Shown: positions 2,879-64,000 of the stretch, one piece after another
Layout of the letters: the number at the start of each line of letters is the position of its first letter
Position numbering within the stretch: position 1 is the stretch's first letter
Source: Octopus vulgaris
Taxonomy: Eukaryota
NCBI GenBank assembly: GCA_951406725.2
Contig: OX597827.1
Location: 79,546,001-79,610,000 of the forward strand
Direction: 5' to 3'
Length of the DNA stretch: 64,000 nucleotides
Program-made: the position numbers and the translations under genes
Notes under the pieces: model-generated
What the model was told of the DNA's origin: nothing
Databases searched by the model: none
The model's input: the letters and a program-made list of their open reading frames with translations, nothing else

Positions 2879-3714
2879 AGGCTATGATTGTTTGCACATG
2901 TGATAAGTGTGAATGAAGACAGCTGTATAAAGAAATGTCAGTCTCTTAAAGTGGATGGCACCTGTGGAAACCCAGATAGACATGGGATGAAGTAGTGGGG
3001 ACTGATCTCAAGAAGTTGGCCCTCATATAGGAGATGACAATGGATCAAGATGTCTGGCCGTATGATGTTCTTAGGAAGTCCTGCCCACCTCAGTGAAACT
3101 GTTTCCTGGAAGTGCTGTGTATTCTACCAACATGTAACATTCATTCACACATTGTACCCTAGCAAATCAAATCAAATTACATCTCTTCTTCTGCTCCCCA
3201 CCATGCACTATACTTACCTTTATCTTCTCACTCCTGTAGCCCAATCATGTCCTCTCCACTGCCAAATGTATCATTGCTAGCCTGTTGCCTCCTCCCCCAT
3301 ATACCAATGTTTCACCATTCACTGCATCCACCCCTCCCCACTTTTCCTTTTCTCTCCCCTTTTTGCACTTATAAGAACTTTTTACTCATGTATCCTGAGA
3401 AATCCTTTACCATTCCATTTATATACATATCCTTGTACCTTGAGAGTATGCCCTGGTACATAGTCACCATCTCTCTCACCACCTCTCACTTTTGTTGTCT
3501 CTCTTGCTCTATCTCTCTCTCTCACTCTCTCTTGCTCTCTATCTATCTATCTATTTATCTCTTTCTCTCCCCACCACAACTACAATAACCATATATCTCC
3601 TCCACAACAAAACACCTTTTTCCCCTTCGGTCAGTCTCTTTCCTCTCACCACCTAGCACAAATCCACTTCTTTCAACACTCCATACCACTCAAGTGAGCT
3701 TTGCCTTTCAAGTT

Positions 3715-3890
3715 TCTTGGTGACCTTGCTAGTACTGGTACCTCACAAAAAGTATGCAGTTTACTCAGTAAGGTGGTTGGTGTTAGGAAGGGTGTCCAGC
3801 TGTAAAAAGCCGGCCAAAGTAGACGGTAGAGCTTGGCACAGTGCTGTGACTTAGCAGCTCCTGTCAAACCATCCAATCTATACTAGCAGT
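3715..3890 (+). mobile_element. 3' part of an abundant SINE family (related pieces at 10120-10300, 17200-17375, 31948-31995, 34158-34525, 43960-44110)
   Basis: Recurring GTGGTTGGTGTTAGGAAGGG..CCAGC...CCAACCCATGCYAGCATGG blocks across the window. Confidence 0.6.
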
Positions 3891-4022
3891 GAACACTGTT
3901 TCATAATCTCTTGTGTCTATATGAATTAGAATTTGATGACCTATACAACATTGAAAAGTATAGATGAAAGAAGAAAATTAAAAAAATATAACACTTGAAA
4001 AATAGATATATGGCATAAGTAC

Positions 4023-6437
4023 CTGTGGAACTGGGGGAAGTTTTCTGGGTGTTGTTGAGTAGTTCCATTCATTGGTCAACTGGTCTATTTCTGGATAGTA
4101 TGAACATTTAGGGTTTATTGACTGAAGATTTCTGCTAAATATCTCTTCTGCATTCTGAGTTATTGCAACAGGATTATTAGTCTGATACAGAATTTGTCTC
4201 ATTTCAGTCCTCGATAGAAATTTTGGATTATCTTTTTCTCCAGATGAATTATTGAAGTGATTAATACATTTGAAAATACATAGTGTTATTGACACTACAA
4301 CAGCCACAGATAGTATTACAGCTGCTGCTACAATGATAATTATCCAGGTCATATTCAGGTTGTTATCAGACTGTGAGTGGATAGCAGTCAACATTGGAGA
4401 TGTATCGTTACTAACAAACAGTGTTAGTATGATAGCAGTTGTTGCTGATTGAACTGGAGTACCACCGTCTTTCACTATAAACTGCAGCTCATATGTTCCT
4501 GCATCATTTTGGTAAACTGTGCGAGAGAAAGATAACACACCAGTGTGTGAGTTCACTGTAAACAGGTTTTTATCATTGGATCTCAGTATTCCATATGTGA
4601 GGAAAGCATTGTTTCCAGTGTCTTTGTCAGATGCTTTCAGAATTGTGATGTCCTTCTTACTGTGTGGATGGTAGTGGACATCTAGATTGTAAGGGTCATT
4701 ATTAGGAAAGATAAAATAAGGTGCATTATCATTTTTATCTAGAATCTCTATAAGAATGTTAGCAGTGTTGTTCAGAGAAGGTGTTCCATTGTCTTTGACT
4801 AAAACCTGTAAATTATAGATGTCTTTCACTTCTCGATCTATTGGTTGTGATGTAGAAATAAATCCATATTTTGTCAGTTGGAAAGGAATGTTATCATTGT
4901 TGTTATCATTGATGATAGAATATGTAAGTTGGCCTCCATCTCCAAGATCAGGGTCTGTAGCATTGATGAAGCCAATAGGGAAGTCAACTTTCTGGTTTTC
5001 ATAGGTGAGGAATTGGAATGTCTCTTTGGTGAAATGTGGTTCTACATCATTGACATCAGTTACTTTGACAGAGAACTGTTTCTTAGTCTTTAATGGAGGT
5101 GATCCCATGTCATGACATACAATAGAAACAACATAATGGTCTATAGTTTCTCTGTCAAGAGGTTCTTTCACCAATATTTTATATTCTTTAGAACCCATAT
5201 TAGAAAGCTGGAACATTTTATGGTGAATATTACATTTAATTTGTCCATTAGGCCCATTATCAGTGTCAATGACCATAACGTAAGCTATAAAACTCCCAAT
5301 TTTACTTGCTTCTGAAATAGCAGTAGAAGTCTTTGTTAAAGGTGATATAAAATCTATATTTATTGCTGGAGCATTATTTTGATTGTTAATTACATTTATA
5401 ATCAACGTTGACATGGAGCTTAATGAAGGATTTCCACCATCCCTAGCTTCAACGTATAACTGGTATTTACTTTCCTTATTTCTAAAGAAATTATCATTGA
5501 TGAAGATTTCTCCAGATTTATGATTTAATTTGAAATACTTTTTATCATATTCATTTGTATTTCTATGTAAAAAATAATTTATATTTCCATTTTGACCAGA
5601 ATCTAAATCTGTTGCTGATAAAACAAAAACAGGAGAAGATATATGATGTGTGTCACTGATGGTGGTATTATATAATTTTTGTGTAAACGTAGGTCTGTTA
5701 TCATTGACATCAATAACAGATATTTCAATGTTCAGAATACCTTCTTTTGGTGGAGAACCCCCATCTCTTGCAATCAACTGTAACATATATGTGTCTTTTA
5801 ATTCTCTATCTAACATTCCTTCTAGAATTATTTTAAGTAAATTTATTCCATCAGATTCTTTAAATATGGAGAGCGAGAATGTTTTGCTTTTATCTTTGAG
5901 TTTATATATTATCTTAGAATTTGGAAGACTAATGTCTTTATCAACAGCATTTGGTATTGATTTTGTTGATCCTTTCCCGTCTGTTTCATCGAATTTGATT
6001 TTTAATTTGTTTGATGGGAACTCTGGTTGATGATCATTAATATCTTCTATAATTATTTTTATCTTTAATATCTTTAGAAATGTTTCCTCTTTCCTTACTG
6101 CTACTTTAACAGTTCTAGAGCATTCTTTCTTGTAAACACAAAGTTTTTCAGCATCCAGTGTTTGAGTAGTGTATAGTTTTCCTAAGCTTGTGACATTAAA
6201 TAAGTGAGAACCACTTGATACTGTTCTCTGTAGTTGTGTAAATGTAATGAGTGTGAGCTGTTGATGTGTAAGAGGATTTGATAGGTTAGAGTCAGCTGCA
6301 ATATCTCCAATGTATGTGTGTGGACTGTCTTCTTCATTGACATGGTAAATGTAGTCTATCGACATGACAGAATACATTAGTCCATAGAAAAGGTAAAACT
6401 GCAAAGTATTGCTTGTCATCTCATTATTGTAATTCAT
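4023..6437 (-). CDS. Pcdh: Protocadherin gene A, large exon (signal peptide, EC1-EC6, TM, proximal cytoplasmic); downstream exons lie off the left edge
   Basis: ORF 3978..6437 has DINDH/DVNDN/LDRE/DxD cadherin motifs, a C-X5-C in EC1 and the TM segment WIIIIVAAAVILSVAVVVSITLCIF. Donor CAG|GT at 4023/4022 is conserved in all paralogs. Acceptor tttttag at 6464-6465. Confidence 0.95.
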
Positions 6438-7531
6438 TATTATTCATGGATATACCTCAAAATCTAAAAAGAATATAAAAGAAATTGCTTGAATCAAACA
6501 GTCATTATACAGAAATATTAATATGGAGAAAATATGTATACTAATATTAAGTGTACAACATTTATCATGTAATATAATCAATAATATTTAGAAATGTTTG
6601 TAACATTATGAAATAATGAAGTAAAATTTTGATAGTCTCATATGTGCCTGTGGCCAGTTTTCTGAATGAAGCAAAATCCATACTTGGTACAACATAGAAG
6701 TATATTCCATAATTATAAAAAAAATTTAAATCATAGTAAATAAAATTATCTCTTCACATATATGAAGTGATTAGAATGAGAATGCATTGCCTCTATATCC
6801 AAAATTAGACATGATAAGAGATTTTAACACATAAACTGTGCTATTTGCTTTTATGAAGTTTTTATGAAAGTTTTCTCATTATGAACTTATTCCTAAGATT
6901 GAAATTACTGAATTACAGATTATAAATAATGTAAAAGAAACACATTATTTTTCAAACACTCTCATTGCATCTATTTATCATACTTAGCTGTTAAATGGAA
7001 TTTGATGTTAGGTCACTTGTGGGTGCATCTGGCAATATCTAACCCAGTCCAACTTGTTTCATAATTAGGTTGTTGCCTACAAAGCTGTTAATTCCACCAA
7101 ACTTGCATGGTGTGAAGGGTGATTTTGGATAAGCTGCAGGATGAATAACAAAACTTATCAAAGAGCAGGTAAACTTAGATAAGTCATTAGCCATCCAATA
7201 AAACATATATATGCAGGTTATATATGTGTATGTTAGTGAAATGTTCATATTTCATTCAAATGAAGCATGGAAGAAATAAGTAATCTTCATCTCCCCAGCA
7301 TTAAAGTTGGCAGCATCAGGCTAATGGGGCAACTTTGAGGTGGAAACATAAAGTCATACAGGATTAAAAGCTATGATGCAGAGTAAATATTGAAAAAAGT
7401 TTTATGACCTGGATATGCACAAAGTTTGATATTTTTTCTTACCTAAACATTTTGTGTTGATATTCAAAGTGAAATAATCTATGTAGTCACTTGGTCTCTT
7501 GAATGTTCTGTCAAGTCTCTTAACAATATAA

Positions 7532-9460
7532 CTAATAATATTAATAGTAATAATAATGATAATGAAATTATTGTGTATAGTGTTCAGGTGAATTACAACT
7601 CATCAAAGGTGCATGTACAGTACATAGAATTATATACAAAAATCAGAGAAGTGAACAGTGTAAGAGTCATGATGTACATTTGTGCATACGTATGGAGTGG
7701 TGGGGATATCAGGTGTAGCATTGGCATGGTTCAGGAAGTATGGAGTTCTTAAAGGATGCAATGTCTTGGCAGCTAACAGTTGATGCAGGTAATTTGTTCC
7801 ATGCTTCAGAAACTCTGAGTTTGAAAAAATGTTTCCAAAAGTCATGGGAGCTGTGCTGTTTTCTGACTTTGTAGACAGACCCATTTGTGTTAGATATATA
7901 GAGCTCAAAAAGGTGCTTAAGGTGGTTGTTGGCATGATGGGTAATAATTTTGTGGGAGTTTGCTCGGTCAGTTACCAGACATCGGAGCTTCAATGTATCT
8001 ATGCCCAGGGAAGCAAGGAATTCAGAGTATGGTCAATGTCTGATGGAAGGCAATTGCTTGGTAGCACATCTCTGAACATTTTCCAGGTGGTCAATGTTCT
8101 GACAAAGATAGGGGTTCCAGACTAGTGATGCAAATTCCAAGTGTGGCCACACCATAGCCATATACAGTCTTAAATAGATAGCTGGTGAGCAGCTGACAAA
8201 AGTCTTGCTGAATGATGACAAGACACCCTCAGGCTTCTTGACAATTTTAGAGATGTGCTTCGCCCAGTGCAAATTGCTGCTGACTGTAATGCCCAGGTCA
8301 CATTCACAAGAAGACTTCTTGATATTAGCATTGTAGAGAAAGTATGTGGACGTTGGGTTTTTCCTCCGAAAATGCATGGTGGCACACTTGTCCACAGCCA
8401 GTTTGAGTTGCTAGTCCATGATCTATTGTTGCGTTGTGTCAGGTTTGATTGCATGATAGATCTATAGTGCCCAGGACCTGTCCTTTTTATCTCAAGGTAC
8501 AGCCTGATGTCATCTGCATATTTCAGCATGGTGGCATTCTTTAAGTTGCCTTTAATATGTCAATAACGTATGTAACAAACAAAAGGGGACCAAGAACAGA
8601 ACCCTGCAGTACACTAGATGACATGTTATAGGGTGAAGAATGCTGCCCTAGAACTGTGACTACCTCTTTTCAGCTGAGGATGAAGGAGTCCAACCAGTTA
8701 AAAATATCATCTTTCACACCAATTACAGAGAGTTTTGCCATAAGTCTTTTTTGTGGCACAGAATTAAAAGCTTTAGCAATGTCATGGTAAACAACATCCA
8801 CCCATGTGCCACCGTTAGTGATCTGGGTGATATTTTCAAAAAAGATGTTAAATTAATCACAGCAGCTGGAGTTAGGGATAAATCCAAATTGCAAGGGCTG
8901 GATAAGGCTGTGAGAATTCCAGAACTTCCAGAGTGCTTCTCTGACATAGGATTCCATCAGTTTGGCAATGCAGTTAGCAAGACTGACTGGATGATAGCTG
9001 ACAGGTGACATGCTGTCACGCTCTTTGAACAGAGGAATGATACTGCTCAGGAGTAGCACCATTGTTAAGACATAACTGAAAGAAGAGTGGAAGCTGGTGC
9101 AGAAGAAAGTACCCACTACGTTTGAGAAGCAGGTACATAACACCATGAAGACCAGGAGAGGCATAGTTGCGTTTATTCTTAAGGTGACTTTGCAGTATTG
9201 CAGGTGCAAATTCCATAATTGTTATGGAATTTTATATCAGAAGTGGTGGAGATGGTACGTTTTGGTTTTCGACAATACAAATGCCTGCATAGCAATCAGC
9301 AATGAGTTCTATGCATTCTTTGGGATCGTCAGTAATCTGGCTTGTGTGGAGATTGCGAAGAGGACCAACTGGAGAGTGAGGTCTCTGCTTTGATCGTACA
9401 TATTTCCAGAACACCTTACTTCAGGATTGGTTGCTATATACTGCTCAAATTCTAAATTTC
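7532..9460 (-). mobile_element. 5'-truncated, degenerate CR1/L2-group LINE in intron 1 of gene A
   Basis: Fragmented RT (YHPVSLAN, QFGF, QGSVLGPLLF, KYADD), C-terminal WPHLEFASLVWNP and WNKLP, (ATT)n-like tail at ~7532-7565. Confidence 0.88.
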
Positions 9461-9842
9461 AAGGCAGAGGAAATTGTATGAAGAGGAAACCTGAAACAAC
9501 TTGAATTGATTCCAACTTAGTGCTCAGTTTTCGTTTTTTTTCTAAGAATGTCACCTGTGTCTGTATTCAGATTAAAGCTATGCAAAATGTTTTTTTCATT
9601 GTCTTATATTAATCATCAACTTACTTTATTTCCTTTTTATTATATTGTTCATTTGACAGAAATCATGAAGAAAAACAACTTTGAACCACTCACCCTGTGG
9701 GAAGATACCCTGTTGGGTTGGCTATCAATCTTTTTAAAATAAATTTCACTCTCTTTGTGGTTTAAGTTGATTAGAAAAAAAAAATTAAAATATTATTTTC
9801 TAATGACAGTTAATATATTTTCACTAAAGCTTTTAAGAGAAC

Positions 9843-9990
9843 AGAGTTGTTCCCCCTTTCAATCTTGTTATATTTTATCTTGTTAGTCTGTCGATGCATA
9901 GTGTTCTTGGAAGAAATATATATCTCCAATTGCACATTTTATTGAAATATTTCACTGACTTCTAATCGATGTGGCCCTGTATTATACACT
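9843..9990. promoter_or_regulatory. Conserved intron-1 element starting with AGAGTTGTTCCCCCT (one copy per gene)
   Basis: Related motifs at 20709, 29441, 40000, 51335 and 63004, all in the same orientation. Confidence 0.5.
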
Positions 9991-12009
9991 TATAATCTGA
10001 TTGTTTAAGTAATATTATAGTGGCAACTGACTGATTTCTGTTGACAGAGATTTGCCTTCCAGGAGGACAGTAATTCCAAATAAAATCTGATACAAAATAG
10101 AGGAGAATTTTAGCCTTTAACATTGGCTAACCATTCTAGTTCTGGTGATACAGTCAACACATCCGGTTCACACCGTAAGACATACATAAAACTGGAAATT
10201 TTTCTTTATTACTGTGTGTGATAGATTACAAGTGTGAGATGAATAATGAGATTTCTTCAATCCATGCCTACATGGAAAAATAGATGTAAAATTACAAAAA
10301 GGATGAGGAATGACAATTTTAATCCTTATTAAAATTCTGGTGTTAAATGATAAATTAACTTTTCATTTAATATGTACAATTGAGATCATATGAAATATAA
10401 ATCTATGTCTCTAGTTTTATGATTGTTATTTTCGACTTGTTCTGATCAGCTTTGCTTGAGAAGACACTCAACAAAAGTGTAGTCAATAAACTAAATGAAG
10501 ACTGCAGATTTAGATGCCCATACAAACTAAACTGCCGTCTGTTGTGATATCATACTATGTTATGTAGACTGTTTGAAATAAAAGTGGATTTCAGAGTATG
10601 TTTGAATTTTTGTACAGTTGTTGGCAATATGAAGCATGTAGAAAAGTAAAATCTACATAACAAGTAAATTTTTCATTTTGTGGAAGAGTTGAGTTTGCTA
10701 CCAGAAATGGCATAGACCTTGATGGCTGTCTTAAATAGCTGGAAAAATAATCTTATTTCTTTTACTTATATTTGACTGAAAATTTGTGGTGTGTCTGTTT
10801 ATGGTTGTTTTAGTTATGATTGTGATCGTTTTTCTATGTGAGTTGAAAACATTATTCAGAAGATTCTGATATTAGTAGAATTATTTACACAAACAAGAAA
10901 AATGGTGTTCAGATGTTTAACAATAGGTAGCCTCATGTTTCCTGATCAAACTCTTCCAATCTTGATAAAGTAGCAATAATAGAATAGAAATAATTTGTAA
11001 TTAGGGATAATTTTGAGGTCATTTATACATATTATATATATATATATATATATAAAGAATTGTTAGTTATATTTGCTTATCATCATTATTTATTAAAAAT
11101 GGGATAAAAAATAACTTGCATTTACTGCAAATGACGATTTTTACTTCGTTACACTTGAAAATATAGAATTTTGAATTTGCTTATGTAAGTGGCCAAAATT
11201 AAACTGACTAAAAATATAATAAATTAAAATATCAAGTGAATGCTTGTCTTTGTACAATGAAGTGCAATGATTCACTGAGTGTATGAACATATATTTTCAT
11301 TTATATATATAGTTATTTTAATTATATATATTTACAGTGATACAGATGTTTATATAATTGATTCTGTTTTCTTGATAAGAATAAATTTTAAAGATATCAA
11401 AATAAGTTTAGAAAATATGTATTTTGTAATTAAGAATAAAAGAAATAACTGAATAATATTTTTAGTTTTAAACATGAATGTCTTCTTTGAGGTTATTTGT
11501 AAAATTAATAAAAACTTGCAATAAGGAATCAAAACACAGACTCTGAATTTGTTGACAGAGAAACTAAATTCTAAAATGAAATTATATTCTTTGAGACTAG
11601 CAGTCCATGCATATTTTGTTATGCATTTGATTCAATATTCTATTTAAATAGAAAGAAATAAGACATTCTCAAAGGTTAATAAATATTGCCTATTTAAACT
11701 GATTTATAGAAATATTTGAATTAATAATTTTAATGAAATATAGTAATATGTATGAAAAATATGAAGTAAAATACAGTTAACTGACAGTCTGGTATTTACA
11801 TAATGATTGCTGTTAAATATATCTACTTTCACATAGTAACTATCCTACTTCAATAGCAATAGCTTTTGGTAATGGCTACATAATTCCATGGCTTCCTATT
11901 TCCTTGCTTGAATATATTATCATTATTAAATATATTAGTATCCATTTCTCATGCTTCAATATCCTAAAATATGAACAGAATATCAAATGAGAAATTGCAA
12001 TGTAATATG

Positions 12010-12150
12010 ACTTACCTACATTGTTTAATCCGTTGTGCTTCCTATAGAAGACATTATTGCATAGTGTTTCAGTGTAACTGCTGCTGTAGTAGTTTGACAA
12101 GGGCAGTATGTTGATGGTGTAGATTTGTGAGTCATACAGAGAGCCAACTA
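12010..12150 (-). promoter_or_regulatory. Putative promoter and non-coding first exon of gene A
   Basis: Conserved module: TGACTCA (12128-12134), CAGCAGCAGTTACAC, donor GTAAGT at 12015. Confidence 0.65.
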
Positions 12151-13989: not shown

Positions 13990-16900
13990 GAAAGAACAAG
14001 GACCCAGTCATATATTTAAGATATTAGATTACACAGTATTACATTTTCATTAAGTACATTTTAAATTATATTAAAGAACCAATTGAAGAAATATTGCTCA
14101 AACAAGTAGGAAATTTTAATAGATAATACATAGAAATACATAATTTTGCCTATTTAAATTTTGATAATGAATAAATTTAGATAATTAAGGTAACTGAACT
14201 CTCTGATTTTTTTAATTGAAGAGCTGACCAACTAGATAAGTTTTGTGCGGGACGCATTGTCATGAATTCTAAAAAGTAATTCTGAAATAAACACATATTT
14301 ATGAAGGGTGGCATTCTTCAGAATATGGTAATAACCTGCATTGTATTGAATTTATAAACTGCTATGATGAAAGTTATATTTCAGTGATTTTGTACTGTAT
14401 TTCAAGGTTGATTAAATTTGATAAGAAAAATGACTTGTTAAAATTTATAGACCCAGTGATTCAGATGTAACACGTTAATGTTTAATTGAAGATAGCACCA
14501 TGCAATACGATGTGTCCTGGTATATAATATGAGCTGAAGTCTAGAAATTTGATATGGACATAAAGTATTTTAATTGAACATTCTGATTTAATGAGGTTTC
14601 TAGACCTTTACCTTTTGACCTACAGATTTAAAAAATAATTTTTTGTAACTAAACACTTTCAAACTTCGTATACTGGTAGAATGTGTCATATAAAACAACT
14701 TTTACTCTTAGCTTTTTTGAGAAAAGTTTATGTTTACAAAGTTATTTTGTGTTGAATTTCTCGTATTTCAGTAATTTCAACCAATCAATGACATGTATTC
14801 AGCTGAATAAAATTACTGCCATTGTTTGATAGTGGTGGAGATATTGGTTGAATTGATCTTGGTATTGGTAGTGATGATAATGGTGGATATTGTTAACTGT
14901 AGCAGTGGTCATATTTTTCTTGTTAATTGTTTTGTTGTTGCTTTTTACTCTCAAGTCAATTATCATTGACAAAAGATAAAAGACATTGCATTCAGCTTTT
15001 AAAATATACTACAGCACCACATTATTTCATGTGATTGTCTTTTATTTTAGAAAGGTGTTGCTCTCCATCAGAAATGAGAAAGGGAAAAGTCCAAAGAAAG
15101 GAGAAGAAGAAATCACTGATGGACCATGTGTAGTTACAAACACACACACACACACACATTCATATATATCTGTATGCAGATAGATATAGATAGTCATTGA
15201 AGCCCAAGAAAATGTATTCCCATCCCCAAGACTAATCACAGTGAAAACTTCCACCTTACACTCTGTGTTTATAGTGACACCTACACATGCCTACACATGT
15301 ATGTACTGTGATTAAAGATTTTGAAATTGATAACTATCCTTTGATCTTAGCTAAAATACCAATAAGTTACCTTTTGTTAAAAAGAAAGTTTAATTTCTAA
15401 ATTCTCAAAATTTATCTGAGTTTCTGTAAGAGCAAAATACTTGACTGTATCCTGGTCATACTTTATATTTTCATAAATATGAATTATTATTTTATATATG
15501 AAAAGAACTTAAGGCAAATGATTTTAATATAATCTGTTATTATGTTCATTAGGGGAAAATGGTTTGTGAAAGAGCAATGTATAAATTAGGATGAGAATTG
15601 GTTAACAGAGAAAGACCAGTTATAGAGATGACAGTCAGTTGATTAGACTTATGACCAAATGGCAGAAAGCAATTGAGGAACACATCTGAAATTAATAGGA
15701 GACAAGGCATATTACTTTTCAAACAAATTTAATGAAATTAATAAAAAAAAGTTGTTGAGGAGAAAATGGTGGTTTCCAAAATAAAAATGGTAAAATATTT
15801 TGCATGATAAAAACAATACAAAAGATTGTCTGTTGATAAGCACTGGAAAAATTGTAGTGCTTTCTAGGAAAGGTGGGTTGTGGTAAGGAATAATCAACAG
15901 AGAAAGAAGTTTATCTGCCTCACTTTATCAACTAAAATATTTTACATATCTGGTGGGAGGACAGATTTCACTTATTAGTGTCGCTGGACATTGTAAATTA
16001 CATCTTGATTACTACAGCAACAAAATCCATGAGCACAGATGATGAATTCAGCGTACAAGTACAGGGCTGTATTCTCAGTTTCCTCTTATTCAACATAGTC
16101 ATCCAGGCCATAACGGAGAAATTTAAGCTGGTTGCCCATGGAAACAACTATATGCTGATGACCTCACTTTTATAGTAGAATCTGTAGTGAAATTGCAGAA
16201 AGCAAATAAGATTCTCCTTCTTTCAGGTAGATGGCCCTGTTCAGTATGTGGGAAAGGTGTTGGAAGAAATTCCATTCATTGCATCTAGTACAAGCTATAG
16301 ACACATAAGCAGTGCATTGGAATCACAGGTAGGTTAAGAGACAAAGTTGCCTCTGTATGTGGCAGATGTGCAGAAACAATAAGTATTAAGGACATACAGG
16401 AATTAGGCTCTCTCAAAAACTCAGGAGGCTCCCTTAAGATTGTAAATAGTCTCCATTATCTAGGAGATAAAATTAGCCATAATGGAAGATGTTCTGAATG
16501 TATTGTTCCTAGAGTTAGAATAAGATGGAGGAAGTTCAGAGAGCTATTACCCCTATATGCTCCATGGTAGGGAGAGGCAAATGTAGATGACTAGTGAGGA
16601 ATGAAGCTGATGTGCAACATCAGTGTGCATGTATGACAAAGTGCAAGAGTTGAATCAAATGTGGCATGCAAGAGAGAAGTTGAATCAAATGTAGCATGCA
16701 AGAGAGAGGACTATGATTTATTTACATTATTTACATTTAACATGTTTCAGATAACACAACGTTTCGGCTGCTATACCCTCCAGCCTTCATCAGGTGTCTT
16801 GGGGAAATTTCAAACCTGGGTTCTCATTCCTAAGGTATTTTTCAATGTTATTATTATTATTGTTATTATTCAGGCCTCTGCCTGCAATCGAACTTGGAAT

Positions 16901-19540
16901 CTTGGGGTTAGTAGCCTGCGCTCTTAACCACTACATCATATACCCGTGGGCAATTATGGAGTGAATTTTAGGGCTTATAAATCTAATATTTTTCTATCCT
17001 TCCTTAGTTCCGGATGAAGGCTGGAGGCGATATCAGCTGAAACATTATGTTAACAACAAACAAGATAAGGACAAATATCCATCATGCACAACAGAACACC
17101 TCTTTCCCCTTCGGTCATTCTCTTTCCTCTCATCACCTAGCACAAAGCCACCTACTTCAACACTCCATACCACTCAAGTGAGCTTTGCCTTGCAAGTTTC
17201 TTGGTGACCTTGATAGCACTGGTACCTCACAAAAAGTACGCAGTTTACTAAGGAAGGTGGTTGGTGTTAGGAAGGGTGTCCAGCTGTAAAAAGCAGGCCA
17301 AAGTAGACAGTGGAGCTTGGTATAGTGCTGTGACATAGCAGCTCCAGTCAAACCATCCAATCTATACTAGCAGTGAATCACTGTTTCATAATCTCTTGTG
17401 TCTATATGAATTAGAATTTGATGACCTATACAACATTGAAAAGTATAGATGAAAGAAGATAATAAAAAATATAACACTTGAAAAATAGATATATGGCATA
17501 GGTACCTGTGGAACTGGTGGACGTTTTCTGGGTGTTGTTGAGAATTTCCATTCATTGGTCAACTGGTCTATTTCTGGATAGTATGAACATTTAGGGTTTA
17601 TTGACTGAAGATTTCTGCTAAATATATCTTCCGCATTCCGAGTTATTGCAACAGGATTATTAGTCTGATACAGAATTTGTCTCATTTCAGTCCTCGATAG
17701 AAATTTTGGATTATCTTTTTCTCCAGATGAATTATTGAAGTGATTAATACATTTGAAAACACACAGTGTTATTGACACTACAACAGCCACAGATAGTATT
17801 ACAGCTGCTGCTACAATGATAATTATCCAAGTCATATTCAGGTTGTTATCAGACTGTGAGTGGATAGCAGTCAACATTGGAGATGTATCGTTACTAACAA
17901 ACAGTGTTAGTATGATAGCAGTTGTTGCTGATTGAACTGGAGTACCACCGTCTTTCACTATAAACTGCAGCTCATATGTTCCTGCATCATTTTGGTAAAC
18001 TGTGCGAGAGAAAGATAACACACCAGTGTGTGAATTCACTGTAAACAGGTTTTTATCATTGGATCTCAGTATTCCATATGTGAGGAAAGCATTGTTTCCA
18101 GTGTCTTTGTCAGATGCTTTCAGAATTGTGATGTCCTTCTTACTGTGTGGATGGTAGTGGACATCTAGATTGTAAGGGTCATTATTAGGAAAGATAAAAT
18201 ACGGAGCATTATCATTTTTATCTAGAATCTCTATAAGAATGTTGGCAGTGTTATTCAGAGAAGGTGTTCCATTGTCTTTGACTAATACCTGTAAATTATA
18301 GATGTCTTTCACTTCTCGATCTATTGGTTGTGATGTAGAAATAAATCCATATTTTGTCAGTTGGAAAGGAATGTTATCATTGTTGTTATCATTGATGATA
18401 GAATATGTAAGTTGGCCTCCATCTCCAAGATCAGGGTCTGTAGCATTGATGAAGCCAATAGGGAAGTCAACTTTTTGGTTTTCATAGGTGAGGAATTGGA
18501 ATGTCTCTTTGGTGAAATGTGGTTCTATATCATTGACATCAGTTACTTTGACAGAGAACTGTTTCTTAGTCTTTAATGGAGGTGATCCCATGTCATGACA
18601 TACAATAGAAACAACATAATGGTCTATAGTTTCTCTGTCAAGAGGTTCTTTCACCAATATTTTATATTCTTTAGAACCCATATTAGAAAGCTGGAACATT
18701 TTATGATGAATATTACATTTAATTTGTCCATTAGGTCCACTATCAGTGTCAGTTACCATAACATAAGCTATAAAACTACCAATTTGACTGTCTTCTGAAA
18801 TAGCAGTTGAAGTCTTTGTTAAAGGTGATACAAAATCTATATTTATAGATGGCACATTATTTTGATTGTTAATTACATTTATAATCAACGTTGACATGGA
18901 GCTTAATGAAGGATTTCCGCCATCCCTAGCTTCAACATATAATTTATATTTATTTCTTTTATTTCTGAAGAAATTATCATTGGTGAAAATTTCTCCAGAT
19001 TTATGATTTAATTTGAAATACTTTTTATCATATTCATTTGTATTTCTATGTAAAAAATAATTAATATTTCCATTTTGACCAGAATCTAAATCTGTTGCTG
19101 ATAAAACAAAAACAGGAGAAGATATATGATGTGTGTCACTGATGGTGGTATTATATGATTTTTGTGTAAATGTAGGTCTGTTATCATTGACATCAATAAC
19201 AGATATTTCAATGTCCAGAATACCTTCTTTTGGTGGAGAACCTCCATCTCTAGCAATCAACTGTAACATATATGTGTCTTTTAATTCTCTATCTAACATT
19301 CCTTCTAGAATTATTTTAAGTAAATTTATTCCATCAGATTCTTTAAATATGGAGAGTGAGAATGTTTTGCTTTTATCTTTGAGTTTATATACTATCTTAG
19401 AATTTGGAAGACCAATGTCTTTATCAACAGCATTTGGTATTGATTTTGTTGATCCTTTCCCTTCTGTTTCATAAAATTTGACTTTTAATTGGTTCGATGG
19501 AAACTCTGGTTGATGATCATTAATATCTTCTATAATTATT
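13990..19540 (+). repeat. Near-identical duplicated or converted segment, copy 2
   Basis: Matches 1..~6055; has ~295 bp extra at 16278-16570 and lacks ~2832-3605 of copy 1. Confidence 0.92.
16753..16798 (-). ncRNA. Minimal type I hammerhead ribozyme motif (duplicate)
   Basis: Identical to 2499-2544. Confidence 0.65.
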
Positions 19541-19905
19541 TTCACCTTCAAAATCTTCATAAATGTTTTTCCTTTCCTCACTGCTACTTTAACAATTCTG
19601 GAACATTCTTTGTTGTATGTACACAGAGACTCAGCATCCAGTGTTTGAGTAGTGTATAGTTTTCCTGAGTTGGTGACATTAAATAAGTGAGAACCACTCT
19701 CGACTGTCCTTTGTAGTTGTGTAAATGTAATGAGAGTGTGTTGTTGATGTGTGAGAGGGTGTGATACGTTGGAGTCAACAGCAATGTCTCCTATATAGGT
19801 GTGAGGACTGTCTTCTTCATTGATATGGTAAGTAATGTCTAAGGCTACACCAAAATACAGTAAGCCATAAAAAATGTGAAGCTGTAAAGTGTTGATTGAA
19901 ACCAT
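17506..19905 (-). CDS. Pcdh: Protocadherin gene B, large exon
   Basis: ORF 17386..19905, six EC repeats plus TM. Donor CAG|GTACCT at 17506/17505; acceptor AG at 19939-19940. Confidence 0.95.
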
Positions 19906-20989
19906 TGTTGTTATTCATTATCTTTCATAAATATTTATCTAAATTTAAAAAGAAAAGAGAGCTTGTTAATTGAATCATACAATCTAATATAGAAATGTTA
20001 ACTATATGAAAATTATAGATAGTTTAAACTGAGAGATGAAAAATATGAGAAACTTACTAATCCATAATGTTTAGTAACTTCTGTAATATAATTGATGAAA
20101 ATTAGTTGTTAAGTTATTAACTCAGGTGAAATTAAAGTAATGTCAGCCATTGTCGGAATTGATCTGGAATTGAACTGAGAGACTAAACCAAATTCCATAA
20201 AATGTTTTGTCAACACTTTATACATTACTTAATTTTTAAAACTAATTGTATAAATGGATATAGAAAGTGTGCAATGAGGACCTGGTGTTGTGTACCATAT
20301 AGTAAATGAATCAACAATTTGAATTGATTCTTATATAAAGCTCACTTGAGCTTTTCCTTTTTATATCATCCTATATCTGTAGTCAGATTAGATTTTAAAA
20401 AATATCTGTCATTGTCTCAGATTATTCATCAAAAGGTTTAATTTAAAAGTTTTTATATCAACCAAATTACAGAGCTGATTTTTAAAAAGTACTAATTTAT
20501 GTCTTCGCCCTATTCTTGGATACTCTTTCAACTTAGCTTTACACCATTTCAAAGTAAACATAATTATTGACACTTACAATTCTTGTTGGACGATATAGTG
20601 TTGCAAAATAAATTCAGTAGTTAATCCCTTGGTCTCCAAGATATATTTATGAAGCTTTTCAAATTTGTGGCAGCCAATATATTTTCTATGATAACTATTA
20701 AAAACAATAGAGTTATTCCCCCTTCTAATATTTTGAATATTTCCTTCTTTTTCTTAGGTTAATAAAAGTTTGAAGAAGGTCCCATGTTAGCTGAGATACA
20801 AAAAAATATGTGAAAATGTGCTTCCTAGGTCTGTAAACAACATTCAGTGGCCTCGAAATGAATTCAACAAAGGCTAAAGATTTACCAAGCATATAGAAAA
20901 GTAGCCAGTGCAATGTTCACACACATACACACTCGCACAAAAGGGCGCACTTACTCAGTATAGCAGATTGTAAATTTGTATGCTGTACT

Positions 20990-21700
20990 CAGTGTAAACT
21001 ATGGATGCACAAAAGATGTAATGGGATCACAGGGAACGTAGGCTTTGTTTGTGGTGGAGGCACATAAATAATTAGTGGTAATAATACACACAAAAACCAA
21101 CTCTTTCAAATACATGGGAGGCTTACTAAAAGTAGTTAATAGTTTTCATTACCAAGATGACCTAATTTGTAGTAGAGGTGAGTGTATACAAGGCATAGTA
21201 GAGTCTGAAGAAGAACATGATGGAAAAAACTTAGGGAGCTGTTATCTCTGCTGGCAACAAACGAGTTCTTGTAGAGTGAAGGGCAGATTGTATTATGCTG
21301 GTATATGAATTGCAGTACTGCATGGTAGTGAACATAAGGGTTCTGACATAAAACGATTTATGAAGACTAGAAATAAATACAGTATGCACTACTACTTGTG
21401 TTATGTGAATGAGCATGAATTGTGGAACAAAATAAAGTGGCCTTCACTACTACTTGTGTAACGTGAATGAGCATGAATTTTGGAACACAAATGATTTGAG
21501 AGAAAAACTGGTTATAATAAAAATCAGATTTAAGGAGCAAGAGAGAAGCTTGTGCTGGTACAGACTTGTGGTGCTTATAGAGACTAACAGCCCTGTAAAG
21601 AAGTGCTGAGTGCTCTATGTAGATGGAACCTGTGGAAGAAAGAGGTTTTATAAAGTGATGGATGCTGAACTTCAAAAAGGAGGTGACAAAGTACCACAAG
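20990..21700 (+). mobile_element. Highly degenerate RTE-like LINE fragment
   Basis: LKVVNSFHYQDDLI resembles the post-RT segment of the RTE piece at 16430-16550; internal ~60 bp tandem duplication at 21388-21490. Confidence 0.5.
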
Positions 21701-22344
21701 GATTAATAGTGTTGTAGTGCTAGAGGACACTTTCTGTCTCATCCATATAAATATGTTAAACCTCCATCATCTGCCCCCTTGCTTCTTTGACATATTTTGT
21801 CTCTATCCTCCACATTCTCCATATTCATGCTTGTCCACACTATTGCCTTTGACATCCTCTTGCCTTTGTTCCATTCACTTTCTGCCTGCTTTGGCCTCTG
21901 CCACCTATTTGACATCCTCTCATCTATCTCATTCTTCTCCTTTCCACACACCCTCTCACACACTCTTTGTCTCTTATCCAGTGTGCCATGCTATCAATAT
22001 AACATGAGATAGCAAGGGATCTTTTAATATTCAAACTATTCTAATATCATCCTTTTCACTCTACCCCTGTTTCTCTCCCATCACAGTGCCTATATAATGA
22101 GGGATTGCATTAGATCCCTTTACAATGGATACACTGCACCTCTTCTGTGCTGCTAACCATTACTCCTTCTTCTCCTAAGTCACTCCTAACTGACACTCAA
22201 CACTCCTTACATAAGCTGTCTCTACACCTTACTACCAGTTTTTCTCTCTCACCACTAAATACGTAACTGCTATCACCCATTATCCTCTATTATTACTGTC
22301 TACATTATTGTCCCCACTTACCAGACTATCTCTCTCATTAATTC

Positions 22345-22822
22345 CTATAAGGGTCTATAGGAGTTGCATGAGAACTGCAATGCTGTATGGGAGTGTGACA
22401 TCATGTCTGAGGGAGAGAGACATGACAATTTTGAGACGGACTGAGAGAGTAAGGGTGAGAGGAATGTATGGTGTGAAGCTGTTTGATAAGAAGAGGACTT
22501 GATGGGGATGTTGGGGTTGGAGGAATCAGTGGAATGGCTGGTAAGGGCGAAAGGAGTGCAGTGGTATGGGCATATGTTGAGGCAGGATGAGGAGCATGTG
22601 CTGAGGAGGATGCTTGAGTTTGAGGTAAATGGACCACGAAAGTGAGGTAGACTAAGGAAAACATGGAGGGGATGGTTGGATTGAGAAGGGAGGACACCCA
22701 AAACTGGGCAAGATGGCGAAATGGTGTGAGGGCAGTTGCTATGGCATTAAGGTAGATCCAGCCACTTCTGTTAACGGGGACAAAACCCAGATTTAAAACA
22801 CTGGATGATAATGATAATGATG
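22345..22822 (+). mobile_element. 3' end of an RTE-clade LINE
   Basis: RVYRSCMRTAMLYGS..LRRTER..RGMYGVKL, WYGHMLR, and a (GAT/AAT)n tail. Confidence 0.75.
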
Positions 22823-23765
22823 TATCTTGGTTTGGTAGAATTTTTATAAATATCCAAAATACAGTCTAAATATTTGACAATATGTAGATTTCTGCTTCCA
22901 AATAAAATTCACCCGAGATTAAGTGGTAGTAGTGGTACAATAATATAATAATATTTATTAATGTTCTTTTGGAATGTATAACTAATATAACCAAACGATT
23001 ATTACATATATGTATGTATGTGTATGCGTATACATGTTATACATGTATACATACTCACAATTCACAATTACTTCATAAGAGTGTGAATAAAATAATAAGA
23101 AATGCCTGTTACAGATGATGGTTTCATTTAACCAAAGTTGAAAAACTAGAAAACTTAAATTTGCATATGACCAAAATGAAAAGAACTAAAAATATAATAT
23201 AATAAATATAAATATATTATAAATATCAAGGAAATATAAAAATTTTAAATTTATTATAGGTATATTTATGGTAAATATAGTGAGGGTATTTTAATAATAT
23301 ATTGGCAGTGATATACAGTATTTCATTATTTATATATCCCAAAATTTGAATAATATACTAGAAAATCTTATATGATCTAATATATAGATATCTAGTACTC
23401 CATTTCAGTGGAAAGAAATAAGATGTTGCAAGCATCCATTCAATATTCTCAATTATAACAATATTATATCATTAAATCATATTAAGAAATGTGTCAGTAT
23501 ATATGAAAATATTTAATTAAACACAATTGGCTGACAGAGATGAGTATTAACATAATAGTTGTCGATAAAATATCTATCTTCTCATAGAAACGATACTACT
23601 GCTGTAGTAATTACTTTTAGTAATGGCTAGACCTATCTATGGCACTCTGTGGTGTAGTTTATATATATTACCATGAAACACACTATTATTTATTTTCAAT
23701 TTATCACATTATATCACAATATTCAAATATGTATTACTAAAATATTTAATGTAAATTGCAAAATG

Positions 23766-23910
23766 ACTTACTGTTATTGAGAAATCCTTTGTTTGGGCCT
23801 CTTATAGAAGACATTATTGTGTAGTGTTCCAGTGTAACTGCTGCTGTAGTAGTGTGACAATTGCAGTATCCTGATGGTGTAGGTTTGTGAGTCAAATAGG
23901 GAGCCAACTA
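23766..23910 (-). promoter_or_regulatory. Putative promoter and non-coding first exon of gene B
   Basis: TGACTCA at 23888-23894, same core, donor GTAAGT at 23771. Confidence 0.65.
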
Positions 23911-29086: not shown

Positions 29087-30499
29087 TATTTGTCATGAAT
29101 ATTGTTCTAAAAAAGAAAAATCATTTTGAATTAATGCTACATATATTTGATTTCATCAGTTTTATATATATAAAAGGTTTTATATATGCAAAATACATGT
29201 TTCTTTAAAAGCCAAATGCATTTAATTTATCCAGTTATTATCTTGAAGCATTCGTGACATCCTGAAATATTTGATATAGTTTATAAAAATTAAGACTTGA
29301 GGTAATATCTTGAAGTAAAAACTTTATACATGCTTGGAGGTTGTTATCTAAATGAAAATAAGTTAATAGTTATTGCAATAGATATTTTATCAGATAATCT
29401 ACAAGATTAAATAACGCTGTTAAGGATCTTGAAAAACATTAGAGTTGTTCCCCCTCCTCAGTTTTCGTATATTTCTTTTAAGATGATCAGCGATAGAATG
29501 GATTCTAAAGTCGGTGAAACCAATTGAACATTTCTATTAAAATTTTGGAATCGTCTTCAAAATAATGCGACTCTGTATTACACAGTTTTTATTTGAAATT
29601 GATGAGTAGTTACGTAATGAAATAATGATAACTGACTGAGTTTGTGCTGGTTTTCACTATTTTTTTCCTCAATGAAAATAATTCTGATTTAACATAATAA
29701 ATTATTCGCTAAAATATAAAATGAACATCTAAAGCTTTAGCCAAAAACATATAGTATGGTTGTAGTCAATCAACCTTATGGCAGCTACATGTTGGTTTAG
29801 CGCTTGAAAATACAAAACTTCTGTCTGACATGAAAAATTATTTTGTACACATTGCAATATCTCTTTGGGATTCATAGTTGAATCTAGAGCATGTTTCCTT
29901 ATACGGTTGCAGTGTTCTCTATATGTGAGAAACACCTAAAACAGCTACAGCCAGCATTGCTGTAGGTGCTTCTAAAATTTTCAGCAAATATTAAAAAAAA
30001 AATCCTATACTAATTCATAGATTTTTTTTTAAAATGTCTATTGAACTTTGGTGACCATTGAGTAATAAGTTATGGATACAATTTTGTTGTAGTGTTCTCT
30101 ATATGTGAGAAATAATTCAGTAAACTATAGTTATGGCACATTATGAAGCTCAACAAAGTGAAATTTTCACAAATACTAAAAATATAATCCAGGTGCTTTA
30201 CAATATGTAATTTTGCACTTCAACATTAAATTCCTCCAGTTTTACTGATCCAGTAGCAATAAAGTAATGATAATTCATAATTAGAGATCTTTTTGAAATT
30301 ATGCTTCTTTTTAAAAAAGTTTATAATTATTCATATATATACACACACATCATACTACCAATTCCATTCACTACTAAAAATCTTAGCCACACCCTGGCAC
30401 CTGGTTCATTTCCTCCCCATTCTCTCCCCACAAATTAATGACCTCAATTTGCTACTCTTTGTCTTTTTCCACAGATTTTGTATATATATATATATATAT

Positions 30500-30790: not shown

Positions 30791-30909
30791 TGTGTGCACG
30801 TGTGTGTGACATTCAATAAATGAGCTGGAAGGGATATCTTCCTGGGCTTAAAATTGCAGTTCATCATCTCTTACAGAATAGCCACGTTAAAGTGGGGATA
30901 AACACTACC

Positions 30910-30910
<1 letters not shown>

Positions 30911-30972
<62 letters not shown>

Positions 30973-31413: not shown

Positions 31414-31453
<40 letters not shown>

Positions 31454-31473
31454 GTATGTATTTTGTATGTATG

Positions 31474-31527
<54 letters not shown>

Positions 31528-31837: not shown

Positions 31838-31871
<34 letters not shown>

Positions 31872-38967: not shown

Positions 38968-40635
38968 TATTGTAATTCATTATTACAATTCATAAATCCA
39001 TACATCTAAAATAAAATTTTAAAATATTAGCTTATTCACACAAATACATTTTAAAGTATTGCAGAATGTACTTATATAAAATCCTCCTTACTTTTCAGTC
39101 ATAATTAAGATTTCTAGAAATGTCTTAAATTTTTGATTGATAAATGAACTTGTTAATCTGGAGATATAGTCAAGGTAATGACCTGATTGATTTTTAAAAT
39201 TTTATTTTATCAGTCTCCACAGTTGCATGTTACCTGTTAGCTAAAGAAAAAGAAAATTCACAAAATGTCATAGCCACAAGCTCACATCAATATCCTTTAT
39301 TCTGAAAATTTAACTTAATACTATCTAAATTATAAAGTATAGTTTTCAACTGTTTTGTATAACGCAAATTATGTAAATGAGAATGAAGTATTGATTAATT
39401 TAATAAAACATAAGACAATATCAAAAAAAGTAAAAAATAAATTACTGAGATGCAAGTGTGATTATGACACAAAAACACAAATTGAACTGATATGAGTATC
39501 TTTATAACTAGATGATAAACTAAAGGTAAACATATTTTACTAAACTAAACTAAATATTTTACTAATAATGAGTTGTGCCTGTAAAAGTTTGGAGAGAAGA
39601 ATGATTTGAAAACTGAACCAACTCAGTATGGCAAGCGAATCTGTTTCTTCGATATATCTTATATGGGACTATTTTTATCATTAAAGAATGACGTTGTGTT
39701 TGATAGGTAGAATGATTAGAGCATCACCCAGTTTGCTATTTGTCACAGCTCTTGACATTCTGAGTTGAAATACCACCAATGTTAGCTTTGCTTTCCTTCC
39801 TTCTGGGGTCAATAAAATTTTACTTCACTAAAGTAAAACTTAATAAAGACCTACTCATTATATAAATATTTGCAATTTGTGATACATTTTTGCAAAACTA
39901 GTTCTGAAATAATTACCTTCTTTTTAAGTTTCATTCTCATATCTTACTTTTATGAATGAACTCATAAAAATGCATATTTTTAAAACATTCTAAAACTTTA
40001 GAGTTACCTCCCCTATTTTCTTCTACTATTGCTTTTATGGTGTATAAAAATTATTGAATATGTTCGATTGAACACTACACACTGTATTGGAATTTCTCAA
40101 TAGCTTTTAAGTGATGCAGCTCAGTGTTTATATAATCATTTTTCGTTTGTTTTCTTAATTCTATGATGAAATAGTGGCCTTTTTAATGATATCCCTTTTT
40201 TAACTGCTATCGAAATTAATATGAATTTCTTCATTTGAAACATATCCCTAAAATTATACCACATCATTTAGATTATTTTTGTTGTTAATCAAGTGCAATT
40301 ATTTATATTCAAGTACAGAATTGGCCAATTACGTTTTTTTTTTGTTCTGTTCTGCAATATGAGAAAGATTTTTAAAAAAGTTGTTTTTTTAATTTTTAGC
40401 CAGAAGGAAAAGTTTTGCCCATGTCCATTGCAGACCCCATTGTAACTGGTGAAATAGACATGGTTAATGTCCCTCAATTTAAGTCAATGGTTGCATAAAT
40501 TACACTGAGCTTCAGGGATATTTCCTCAATATTTTTTATCCATCTTGCTCCGAATAACTGAAAACTCATTTGATAACTTTTTTTTAAGGATTCACAGAGC
40601 ACAGCTCTTAAACATAATGCAATTATTAATGTTTC

Positions 40636-50932: not shown

Positions 50933-51376
50933 ACGCCAGAATTATGTATTACCAGAGATTATTGCAAGAATATTTAATAACTGAAAAGTAATCCTACTAT
51001 TGCTATGGTTATGTGTCAGTATTAGTGCTGTTGGTTGTGAAAAAACTGCATATTTGTATTTATTTATTTATTCCACTTTACTAACATTGACAGTTAATGT
51101 CACCTTCCTGATATCAACATCCAATCACTACATTTCAGATGTTCATTTAATTGTAGTTTGGCAAAGTGAGTTAAAAAGATAATGACACTTATATTGACTA
51201 CAAAGATGAAATTTAACCACCAGTGAAATTTGAACTCTGGTTGTAGAGAGATGGAACTGGATACCAAACAAGATTTAGTTCTGCTCATTTATATGACATC
51301 AACTTTTAGTGTTTGACCTGTAAAGATTATATGAAGAGTTACTTCCCTGGAAATCCAGTCGAAAGGAAGAAAATAT

Positions 51377-61700: not shown

Positions 61701-64000
61701 CATTACACCACCAGCTTTCATACAGTAAATCTTTCTTTGTTAATAGCATATACTATTATGGTACTACAGTTCTACTTTATTCTCTAACATATTTATTTCA
61801 AATGATTTTATGTATACATACTGCACTGAATGTTTTTAGAAATTGTTACTTTTATGCATAAAAGTGGACAGGGTGCTTGCCTTTTGATGTTATTTTGGAA
61901 TGAAATTAGGAATATTGATTAGAGTGATCAAAAGAAAAGTAAAAAATTTTATTTCAACTAAATATTATCCTTGACTTTCTGCATTGAGTTACTCAGCTCT
62001 AGGACTAACAAACCAACCATACTTGACTGTAGAGCTTCATCCACCTCTCATTTGGGGTTAGCCCTGTTTGAAGAGAAGAGGATGTTGCTTACCAGAGAAA
62101 CATGTATGATTGAAAGAAAGCATTCAGGAAAAAGATAAAGATCATTTACATAAATTGGAACCTCTAAAATGTTTGTATGATGCAGCCTTATCAAATTCAT
62201 TGTAGATTGAAGTTGTAGGGTCAGTAAAAGTCTACATTCTTGAGTAGACCTAAGAATATGCATTAACTTTAGAATTAAGAAATGATTCTTGGTTGTTAAC
62301 AAAGATAGCCTTGATGTTGCTCAATTCAGTCAATGTTTCTAGGAACTTGTTTGAGGTTTTCCAGCTTGAAAAGAAAGGTGGTAGTTAGGCTAGATTGGAG
62401 ACTGTCAGGGGAAGAGTATGTTGATAAGATAGGAACAATGATAGAAAGAAAATATTTAGTAAATAGATCTACCATAGCTTGATGCAAAAATGAATGGCTG
62501 AATATTCGAAGTTCATATTTCATACCATTCATTTGATGATATCTCCCACCAATGGAGTTACCTTGCTGAACTCTGGTGCCAGAAAGTATGCACTGATTTC
62601 CACAGAACTATTTCAGAAACAGTATTTATAAATTAAATTTACATTTCAATATACACATGAGAATTATATTTGTACTTCTTATATCAAGCTTCTCATATAC
62701 ATATTTCTCTTTCTTTTTCTACAAAAATGACAACTTATAAAACATATAAGACAAAATTGTTGTTCAAATCAGTCAATAGTGAAGGAACAGACTTAAAAGT
62801 CAGCAGTATTTCAGCTGTAATCATTAGTCTTTTTTGTGGGGGAGAGGGCAGTGCACCCAGTACCACATTATCAAATGTCCTTCTTGAAAGACAATAGGGC
62901 ACGGTTTAAAGTAGATTTAACTGCTATTTCTAGAAGGTCGAATGATTTAGTAAAGACTGCTTATTTAACTCGTAAATGCCACACGGTTTCCGCTAGGGAT
63001 GCCGGAGTTGCTTCCCTTTTAATCTTTCTCTACTCGCTGTATAGAATTGCATTATTCAAGTGCTATGAATTGTCTTTTAATCGATGTAACTTATATAATT
63101 GATTTCTGAAACTATACATATAATTTTGAAACGAAAGAGAGGACAATGATACATTTCTGTTTTGCTTTATCATCCTATGACTAATTATACAAATTCGGAG
63201 GAGAGAACATTTTGTTATAGTGATCTCAGTTTTTGAGTAGCATTTATTTTACCGGGACTTCAGAAAGTTGAAAAGGAAAGACGATTGGCATGGCAAGGTT
63301 TTTAAGTTAAATACTAAAATACAAGTTGTGTTATTTCACCTCTCTTTACCTGCTAATTATTAAAAACAATTTTGGTACTAAATTATAAATTTTCTCTTTT
63401 GTGGAAATGTGCCTTTGAGATTGTATAAAATAAACATATCCATTAAAGAGTTCTTGTCATCTTTGTTTGAGAAGAACTATATTTAGACGTAGAGGTGCAA
63501 ATTAGAAATTCATAGCATGTCTTCTGCTGTCCTGAGTATTGTTGTGGCTTCAGTAAAAACAATTAATGTGACATGGTGTGCAGAGGTATTTTTCCTTGAT
63601 GTTCTATTTCCTTCGTTTGTAGTTTTGTTTGTAAAAGAAGAGACATTGACGACCAGGAGAGAGTAATATATTTCATGATGTATGTCTTAAAATAGTGCTT
63701 CCTCCCTTATAATATACTTGTATGTACTCATGAAGGATATAAAACGTTGAAACGAACACAACAAAACAGCTTCCCAAACCTTTTAAAAGTTCCATTGAAT
63801 CACCACACTTGATAGGTTGTCTCTTTTGTCAATCTTAAAAGGATGAAAGGCAAAGTTGATTCCAGCAGTAAAAGGACTCAATGAGTCAGAACACCAAGAG
63901 GCACACTATCCAATGCTCTAATGAATTTACCAGTACCTCCCTCCCTCCCTCCATCCATCCATCCATCCATCTGTCTGTCTGTGTATGTACACACACACAC

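Follow-up and report, generated by a model that had tools for sequence, protein, structure and literature searches.

The clustered protocadherin (cPcdh) genes of vertebrates carry CTCF sites (CSE/eCBS), which, in the sections of PMC7811963 covered here, consist of one conserved element for every unit of the tandem array, each pointing the same way; the octopus word reported in this study has the same arrangement. Cephalopod protocadherins, according to the part of PMC9068888 consulted, arose as full gene duplicates, and those of octopus, unlike the vertebrate clusters, do not share constant exons; the same part of that paper describes a great expansion of C2H2 families in coleoids. CTCF-like motifs (PMC9023564) and an enrichment of cadherin genes (PMC13652810) have been reported at coleoid loop anchors in the sections of these papers covered here, and the former also describes a CCCTC-like motif at squid domain boundaries. 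The portions examined of the O. vulgaris protocadherin paper (PMC6339937) mention neither CTCF nor introns, and in the literature searched we found no description of a cis-element involved in the regulation of the expanded cephalopod protocadherin arrays.

Here we analyse a 64-kb stretch of octopus DNA (the window) in which a 14-base word, RGAGTTRYYYCCCY, stands once in the predicted first intron of each of six tandem protocadherin genes. The word is a real, previously undescribed and probably functional cis-element. Our preferred explanation, to which we give a probability of roughly 0.6, is that it is a putative selected binding site for a mollusc-wide sequence-specific DNA-binding factor, possibly a multi-finger C2H2 protein, within an intronic regulatory element.

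The gene array and the word in its first introns

The window contains six tandem cadherin-repeat genes, g1 to g6, all on the minus strand, whose structures are predicted. Across 95% of its length, the reading frame of g2 matches the Octopus vulgaris protein "protocadherin beta-15-like" with 100% identity, and of its best 120 homologs those with a name come from Octopus or Argonauta only. Each unit has a conserved 5' block that is short and contains a donor, followed by a large exon, which has an acceptor, and by a pair of small coding exons at the 3' end (Table 1). Intron 1 of g1 is supported because splicing its donor to its acceptor yields the final 15 residues (the C-terminus) of P0001, a protein predicted by NCBI, while exon 1 of g6 lies beyond the window and intron 1 of this gene is inferred only. 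The TGACTCACAA word, which we take to be AP-1-like, is invariant in all five promoter/exon-1 blocks within the window.

Table 1. Positions in the window of the word copies, the gene parts and the other features discussed in the text
Feature	Gene	Positions	Strand	Basis or remark
Word copy	g1	9843..9856	+	pattern match, leave-one-out matrix
Word copy	g2	20709..20722	+	pattern match, leave-one-out matrix
Word copy	g3	29441..29454	+	pattern match, leave-one-out matrix
Word copy	g4	40000..40013	+	pattern match, leave-one-out matrix
Word copy	g5	51335..51348	+	pattern match
Word copy	g6	63004..63017	+	pattern match, leave-one-out matrix; putative intron 1
Homologous flank block beside word copy	g1	9858..10050	+	matches ~29456-29660 in g3; contains both flank words
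Promoter/exon-1 block	g1	12016..12140	-	TGACTCACAA word, CAGCAGCAGTTACAC word, donor; putative promoter
Homologs of g1 promoter/exon-1 block		23772-23900, 32960-33090, 43291-43420, 52994-53125	-	
Intron-1 donors	g1-g5	12015, 23771, 32959, 43290, 52993	-	
Large-exon acceptors	g1-g6	6464, 19939, 29107, 39006, 50660, 59651	-	
Intron 1	g1	6464..12015	-	donor 12015 and acceptor 6464
Intron 1	g2-g5	19939-23771, 29107-32959, 39006-43290, 50660-52993	-	aligned donors
Large protocadherin exon	g1	4020..6463	-	
Large-exon paralogs	g2-g6	~17503-19938, 26672-29106, 36565-39005, 48224-50659, 57213-59650	-	
Lys-Val-Asp-Phe-Pro coding stretch	g1	4977..4991	-	partly complementary to word; bears on a rival explanation only
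Lys-Val-Asp-Phe-Pro coding stretch	other genes	18460-18474, 27629-27643, 37522-37536, 49183-49197, 58170-58184	-	

P0001 itself (window 13517-6440) is a g2 protein model that ends in residues of the g1 exon 1 and acceptor, a read-through joining neighbouring genes that is either real or an annotation artefact. Downstream of the large exon, g1 and g2 share an intron of 97.7% identity (1-2314 against 13990-16278; 3590-6521 against 17072-20001), whereas the first intron of g1 has diverged much further than this one and has its nearest relative in g3; the contrast between the two introns is apparently the result of recent conversion or chimeric duplication. The large exons of the six paralogs hardly differ in their 3' half (the last cadherin repeats and the membrane segment; alignment columns ~1300-2100): per 100 columns, 1-12 are variable there and 18-77 in the 5' half, a contrast expected from gene conversion. 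The large exon of g5 shifts frame twice, near 48920 and 48600, and for this reason g5 may be a pseudogene or contain assembly errors. In g5 the intron separating the two small 3' exons holds an insertion (44687-46703) with unassigned open frames and inverted-repeat ends (44687-44782 against 46608-46703, 82%).

The pattern RGAGTTRYYYCCCY matches six times in the window, always on the plus strand and never on the minus strand, once for each minus-strand gene and in every case within the predicted intron 1 (inferred for g6), and no further site with one mismatch or fewer occurs in the rest of the window. These are the six co-oriented copies listed in the preliminary description, recovered at the same positions. 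Eight of the 14 columns are invariant, and the word, which is non-palindromic and G-rich, contains two fixed blocks, GAGTT and CCC. It lies 3379, 770, 334, 994, 675 and 3353 bases from the large-exon acceptor in g1 to g6 respectively, and at a variable 1645-3505 bases from the exon-1 donor. The longest of the former distances had been ascribed to transposable elements inserted in the intron, for which there is weak support in g1 (an RVT_1 match with E=0.0014, below the Pfam cut-off) and none in g6.

Since the pattern was fitted to these six copies, we used leave-one-out matrices. At widths of 14 and 15, the copy left out of the matrix took the top rank of 128,000 positions in all six cases, against 0.002-0.02 such matches expected in its own intron. 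With wider matrices that include the flanks, the g5 copy falls to rank 84-100 and that of g6 to rank 7-17. When the six introns were searched de novo, the word was the sole outlier common to all at widths 12-16, with a motif score at width 14 of 123.5 against 94.4 for the runner-up; at width 10 it was absent, and at width 20 the g1 to g4 copies alone were recovered. No prominent second word common to the six introns emerged in this search at widths 10-20. A weaker word of TTTGTGG type occurs on the plus strand in several introns (10677, 21048, 31309, 41277, 62833, 63398), with a score within the background range.

Descent, orientation and conservation

The right flanks of the word in g1 and g3 align in register, with 74% identity over 172 aligned bases (z 10.3). 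The flanks in g1, g2 and g3 can be aligned, and the preliminary description, which called the introns barely alignable, thus overstated their divergence. Weaker right-flank pairs are g1-g4 (z 3.7), g1-g6 (z 2.3) and g3-g4 (z 2.2), the g6 flank weakly resembling those of g1, g3 and g4 (z 1.4-2.3). None of the 15 left-flank pairs is significant in a 250-base test; further to the left of the word g1 and g2 do align (9495-9743 against 20313-20558, E 6e-13). When the word was masked, flank-only profiles placed g1 (E 0.002), g4 (0.066), g6 (0.69) and g3 (2.4) in register and did not place g2 or g5. Two flank words noted earlier are indeed present, at 9927 and 29521 and at 9963 and 63078, each in two of the six copies only. 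Some flank homology therefore exists for five of the six copies, clear in g1 to g3, weak in g4 and g6 and absent in g5, and within the window the flanks adjoining these five copies match other intron-1 sites only. This homology shows common descent of the word sites in g1 to g3 and, more weakly, in g4 and g6.

Inverted arms of 21 bases (51252-51272, 51589-51609) enclose the g5 copy, and some 20 bases after it comes a dispersed repeat (51371-51582) whose other copies in the window do not contain the word. The arms occur nowhere else in the window at five mismatches or fewer, and within the window a MITE origin of this copy found no support. The frame-shifted g5 is the same gene whose word copy has no homologous flanks. 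A dispersed repeat of about 200 bases is present in many decayed copies on both strands (35755-35966, 39703-39818, 40622-41083, 47800-47912, 51371-51582, 55503-56522, 63809-63860).

When whole genes are duplicated in tandem, any word in an intron is copied once for each gene and keeps its orientation, which accounts for the arrangement observed; orientation is therefore no evidence for a CTCF-like or directional mechanism. The preliminary description had drawn a parallel with the co-oriented CTCF sites of vertebrates and had paired the word with the promoter module. The parallel draws no support from orientation, which duplication explains and for which the flanks show common descent (more weakly for g4 and g6), and the pairing draws none from the distance to the exon-1 donor, which varies from 1.6 to 3.5 kb. 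What survives of that proposal is a selected site for a factor other than CTCF, in agreement with the conservation beyond neutral duplication described below.

In its full form the earlier reading, which is a special case of the explanation that we prefer, would make the word a directional loop anchor bound by a non-CTCF insulator protein, through which a shared enhancer chooses among protocadherin promoters as vertebrate CTCF sites do. We consider this unlikely. A long, non-palindromic, G-rich site present once per gene in a single orientation would suit such an anchor, as would the g5 copy, which is oriented like the others and yet has no homologous flanks. Parts of two further reports are also consistent with it, namely the enrichment of cadherin genes at coleoid loop anchors (PMC13652810) and, in the annelid Capitella, a species-specific motif of no known factor at most loop anchors (10.64898/2026.05.18.725834). 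However, for copies with homologous flanks the orientation follows from duplication, the distance to exon 1 varies, the part of PMC9068888 consulted describes cephalopod protocadherins as duplicates of full genes, and we found no paper on stochastic promoter choice in octopus in the literature searched. A bolder version, in which the site of a mollusc-wide architecture protein was spread by transposons and came to be used as an oriented anchor in each gene, would amount to CTCF-free promoter choice that arose independently of vertebrates, and we regard it as doubtful.

Conservation was judged against neutral decay by calibrating paralog distances on the best-kept intron segment and simulating introns down a tree with indels, a calibration that therefore favours the neutral reading. 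The refined leave-one-out score of 123.5 was reached in none of 227 neutral-duplication simulations at the calibrated divergence (73 + 154 runs), in none of 64 at 1.4x divergence, in none of 42 with unrelated sequence and in one of 94 at 0.75x. A cruder centre-based statistic, which on the actual introns had settled on an incorrect site for g6, was at or above the observed value in 9 of 132 simulations. The simulations assume a uniform rate along the intron and no short gene-conversion tracts, together with a tree, an indel rate and a transition bias of our choosing, and the support for selection is therefore good but model-dependent. Mean pairwise identity within the word is 0.79 among copies that are related rather than independent, and 12 of 15 right-flank pairs and all 15 left-flank pairs have p >= 0.05 against resampled controls. 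In addition, the six variable columns of the word contain no transversion: all 45 pairwise differences are transitions, whereas in aligned intron DNA transitions make up a share of 0.43 (P ~0.007). This pattern also fits RNA wobble pairing. Within the limits of the model, these data support the word having been kept beyond neutral duplication.

The alternative is that the word is simply the part of an ancestral intron that survived best, perhaps derived from the insertion of an old repeat; the g5 copy would then match by chance or have come with a repeat. Homology of the flanks among several copies, the position of the g5 copy among repeat pieces, the similar words held by oyster repeats (see below), the 9 of 132 runs that reach the cruder statistic and the one run in 94 that reaches the refined one at low divergence all point in this direction. 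They are opposed by the complete failure of the runs at calibrated divergence to reach the refined score, under a calibration that already leans towards neutrality, by the lack of transversions in the word, and by the other copies of the repeat adjoining the g5 site, which are without it. We give such a neutral relic little credence.

Similar words in other molluscs and candidate functions

A word similar to this one may be frequent in mollusc DNA. In the supplement of an oyster satellitome study (PMC8268682), 13 GAGTTR cores occur on both strands, three of which continue with at most one mismatch to the octopus word (exactly in CgiSat04, and in CgiSat10 and CgiSat26) against about 0.04 expected (P ~1e-5), in a count made by eye on consensus monomers limited to 400 bases (~16 kb, estimated). 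The Repbase labels of these three monomers are Helitron, Helitron and Gypsy respectively, and the portions examined of that paper do not describe the word. An oyster UTR primer (in the part of PMC4169597 covered) fully matches one 13-letter instance of the pattern, as a single case. There were no matches for six 7-mers in a Limnoperna supplement (PMC12818792), a file perhaps without sequences, or for six 12-mers in a mussel myticin file, and at one mismatch or fewer none of the 30 myticin cores examined, out of 284 and mostly from one coding exon, matched. The conserved boxes of BIV160/Cg170 were likewise set aside, as their alignment (PMC5139131 file 4) holds no core match. A metagenome scan for orthologous loci found 37 cadherin loci at 21-31% identity only, and their 324 kb contain six weak matrix matches (score 14-17) in three GC-rich loci. 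Because near-identical words stand in three oyster repeat consensus monomers, the 14-base word is probably not protocadherin-specific, and is instead probably a general molluscan word. We found no description of it in the literature searched; the CCCTC-like motif of squid domain boundaries (in the part of PMC9023564 covered) or the Capitella anchor motif could be this word.

Under the preferred explanation of a selected binding site, the ancestral gene would have had one site in intron 1, each whole-gene duplication would have copied it, giving one site per gene in a single orientation, and the site would have been retained where the bound factor helps the intron to act as a gene-internal regulatory element, whose target would be the gene's own promoter 1.6-3.5 kb away. 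The g5 copy may be all that survives of its neighbourhood, or it may replace an earlier site. To judge from its shape only, the site would suit a C2H2 protein of four or five fingers: 14 non-palindromic, G-rich bases with the two fixed blocks and a purine/pyrimidine-degenerate middle. The oyster matches would favour a factor older than the C2H2 expansion of coleoids. CTCF, NF-kB, RFX, Myt1, MZF1, Ets and Krueppel sites presumably each fit part of the word only. At the gathering score, Rfam gave no match for the word sites. A local hairpin was rejected as no fold is shared by all six copies (z -0.62 to 1.88), and a splice-site remnant was rejected by inspection, a donor-like dinucleotide being present in three of the six copies only (not g1, g2 or g3), and these differ.

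The only recurrent minus-strand look-alike of the word is the Lys-Val-Asp-Phe-Pro coding stretch, found in every large exon, which raises the possibility that in the pre-mRNA the word pairs over 1.8-4.9 kb with its own large exon; the lysine codon would then hold an A-C mismatch and could be recoded by ADAR. This stretch is the best common partner of the six copies (sum -87.0 kcal/mol, the next being -73.9), in a complementarity found post hoc. Shuffling the columns of the word gave a value as good in 3 of 175 cases, and shuffling the triplets of the exon in 7 of 189; with the exons reversed, complemented or reverse-complemented, the sum came to -71.6 to -75.5 only. Editing has also been reported, in the part of 10.1101/714394 consulted, to be enriched in octopus protocadherins. 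However, the core duplexes are short and weak (11-13 pairs, -11 to -18 kcal/mol), and the stretch is the best exon partner for g4, g5 and g6 only, being second for g1, fourth for g2 and outside the top five for g3. At none of four widths did pairing increase significantly with the real flanks (p 0.13-0.51), and the word is present in oyster repeats too. ADAR editing complementary sequences require a duplex that extends over at least about 20 pairs, and the pairing between word and exon stretch falls short of this. Arginine at that lysine was found in none of the 43 homologs (of 120) with the YENQKxxFPIG form, weak evidence in that these are mostly genome-predicted proteins. Taken together, we judge a role in RNA editing to be distinctly improbable. 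Very unlikely, finally, is that the word, which on the gene strand is a purine-rich G-run, is bound by an RNA-binding protein of hnRNP H/F type and helps to define the 2.4 kb exon downstream: G-runs act as intronic splicing enhancers, and the word has a constant transcript strand within intron 1 and lies 0.3-1.0 kb from the acceptor in four of the six genes, but its invariant five-base block beside the G-run exceeds what a G-run needs, it is a single copy per intron, a distance of 3.4 kb is tolerated in two of the six genes, and similar words stand in oyster repeats.

Comparison with described elements

Set against what we take to be the CTCF consensus, the octopus word does not fit: the copies of g1 to g4 share a CCCCT run, but the bases that follow do not agree. 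The CSE/eCBS sites, in the sections of PMC7811963 covered here, have a CGCT box, which none of the six octopus words contains. The vertebrate sites are, in addition, bound by CTCF and cohesin and loop to enhancer sites of reverse orientation. In those sections, CSE/eCBS sites flank promoters or lie about 700 bases into the coding exon and form a pair at this fixed distance, whereas the octopus word is intronic, 1.6-3.5 kb from exon 1, and present as a single copy, the promoter block having a different word. As it has no CGCT box, is unpaired around the promoter and is variably spaced, we do not class the octopus word as a CTCF site.

ADAR editing complementary sequences are intronic elements complementary to an exon of the same transcript, as in the glutamate receptor and in Drosophila synaptotagmin I. 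The octopus word may likewise be a short intronic element complementary to an exon stretch of its own transcript, with an A-C mismatch; unlike ADAR targets, its putative duplex has 11-13 pairs only, is weak and is not extended by the flanks.

The promoter motifs of mussel myticin genes, as presented in the sections of PMC7356231 covered, exemplify paralog-conserved elements identified through phylogenetic footprinting and resemble the octopus word in being short, in standing at homologous places in diverged paralogs of a mollusc gene family and in having no named factor. In contrast, the myticin motifs form a promoter array, and in those sections are reported not to be shared with other genes, whereas the octopus word is one isolated intronic word with near-copies in oyster repeats. 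Viewed as a footprint among paralogs, the octopus word shows conservation above neutral, in a model-dependent estimate, at positions whose homology is clear in g1 to g3, weak in g4 and g6 and absent in g5. The six homologous 14-base sites offer a precise target for the study of protocadherin-array regulation. The oyster CgiSat04, CgiSat10 and CgiSat26 monomers (PMC8268682) contain the same 14-base pattern as octopus, exactly or with one mismatch, and between their flanks and those of the octopus sites we saw no similarity by eye, in unaligned sequences. If these matches reflect one factor, a binding motif that as yet has no known protein would be conserved between bivalves and cephalopods.
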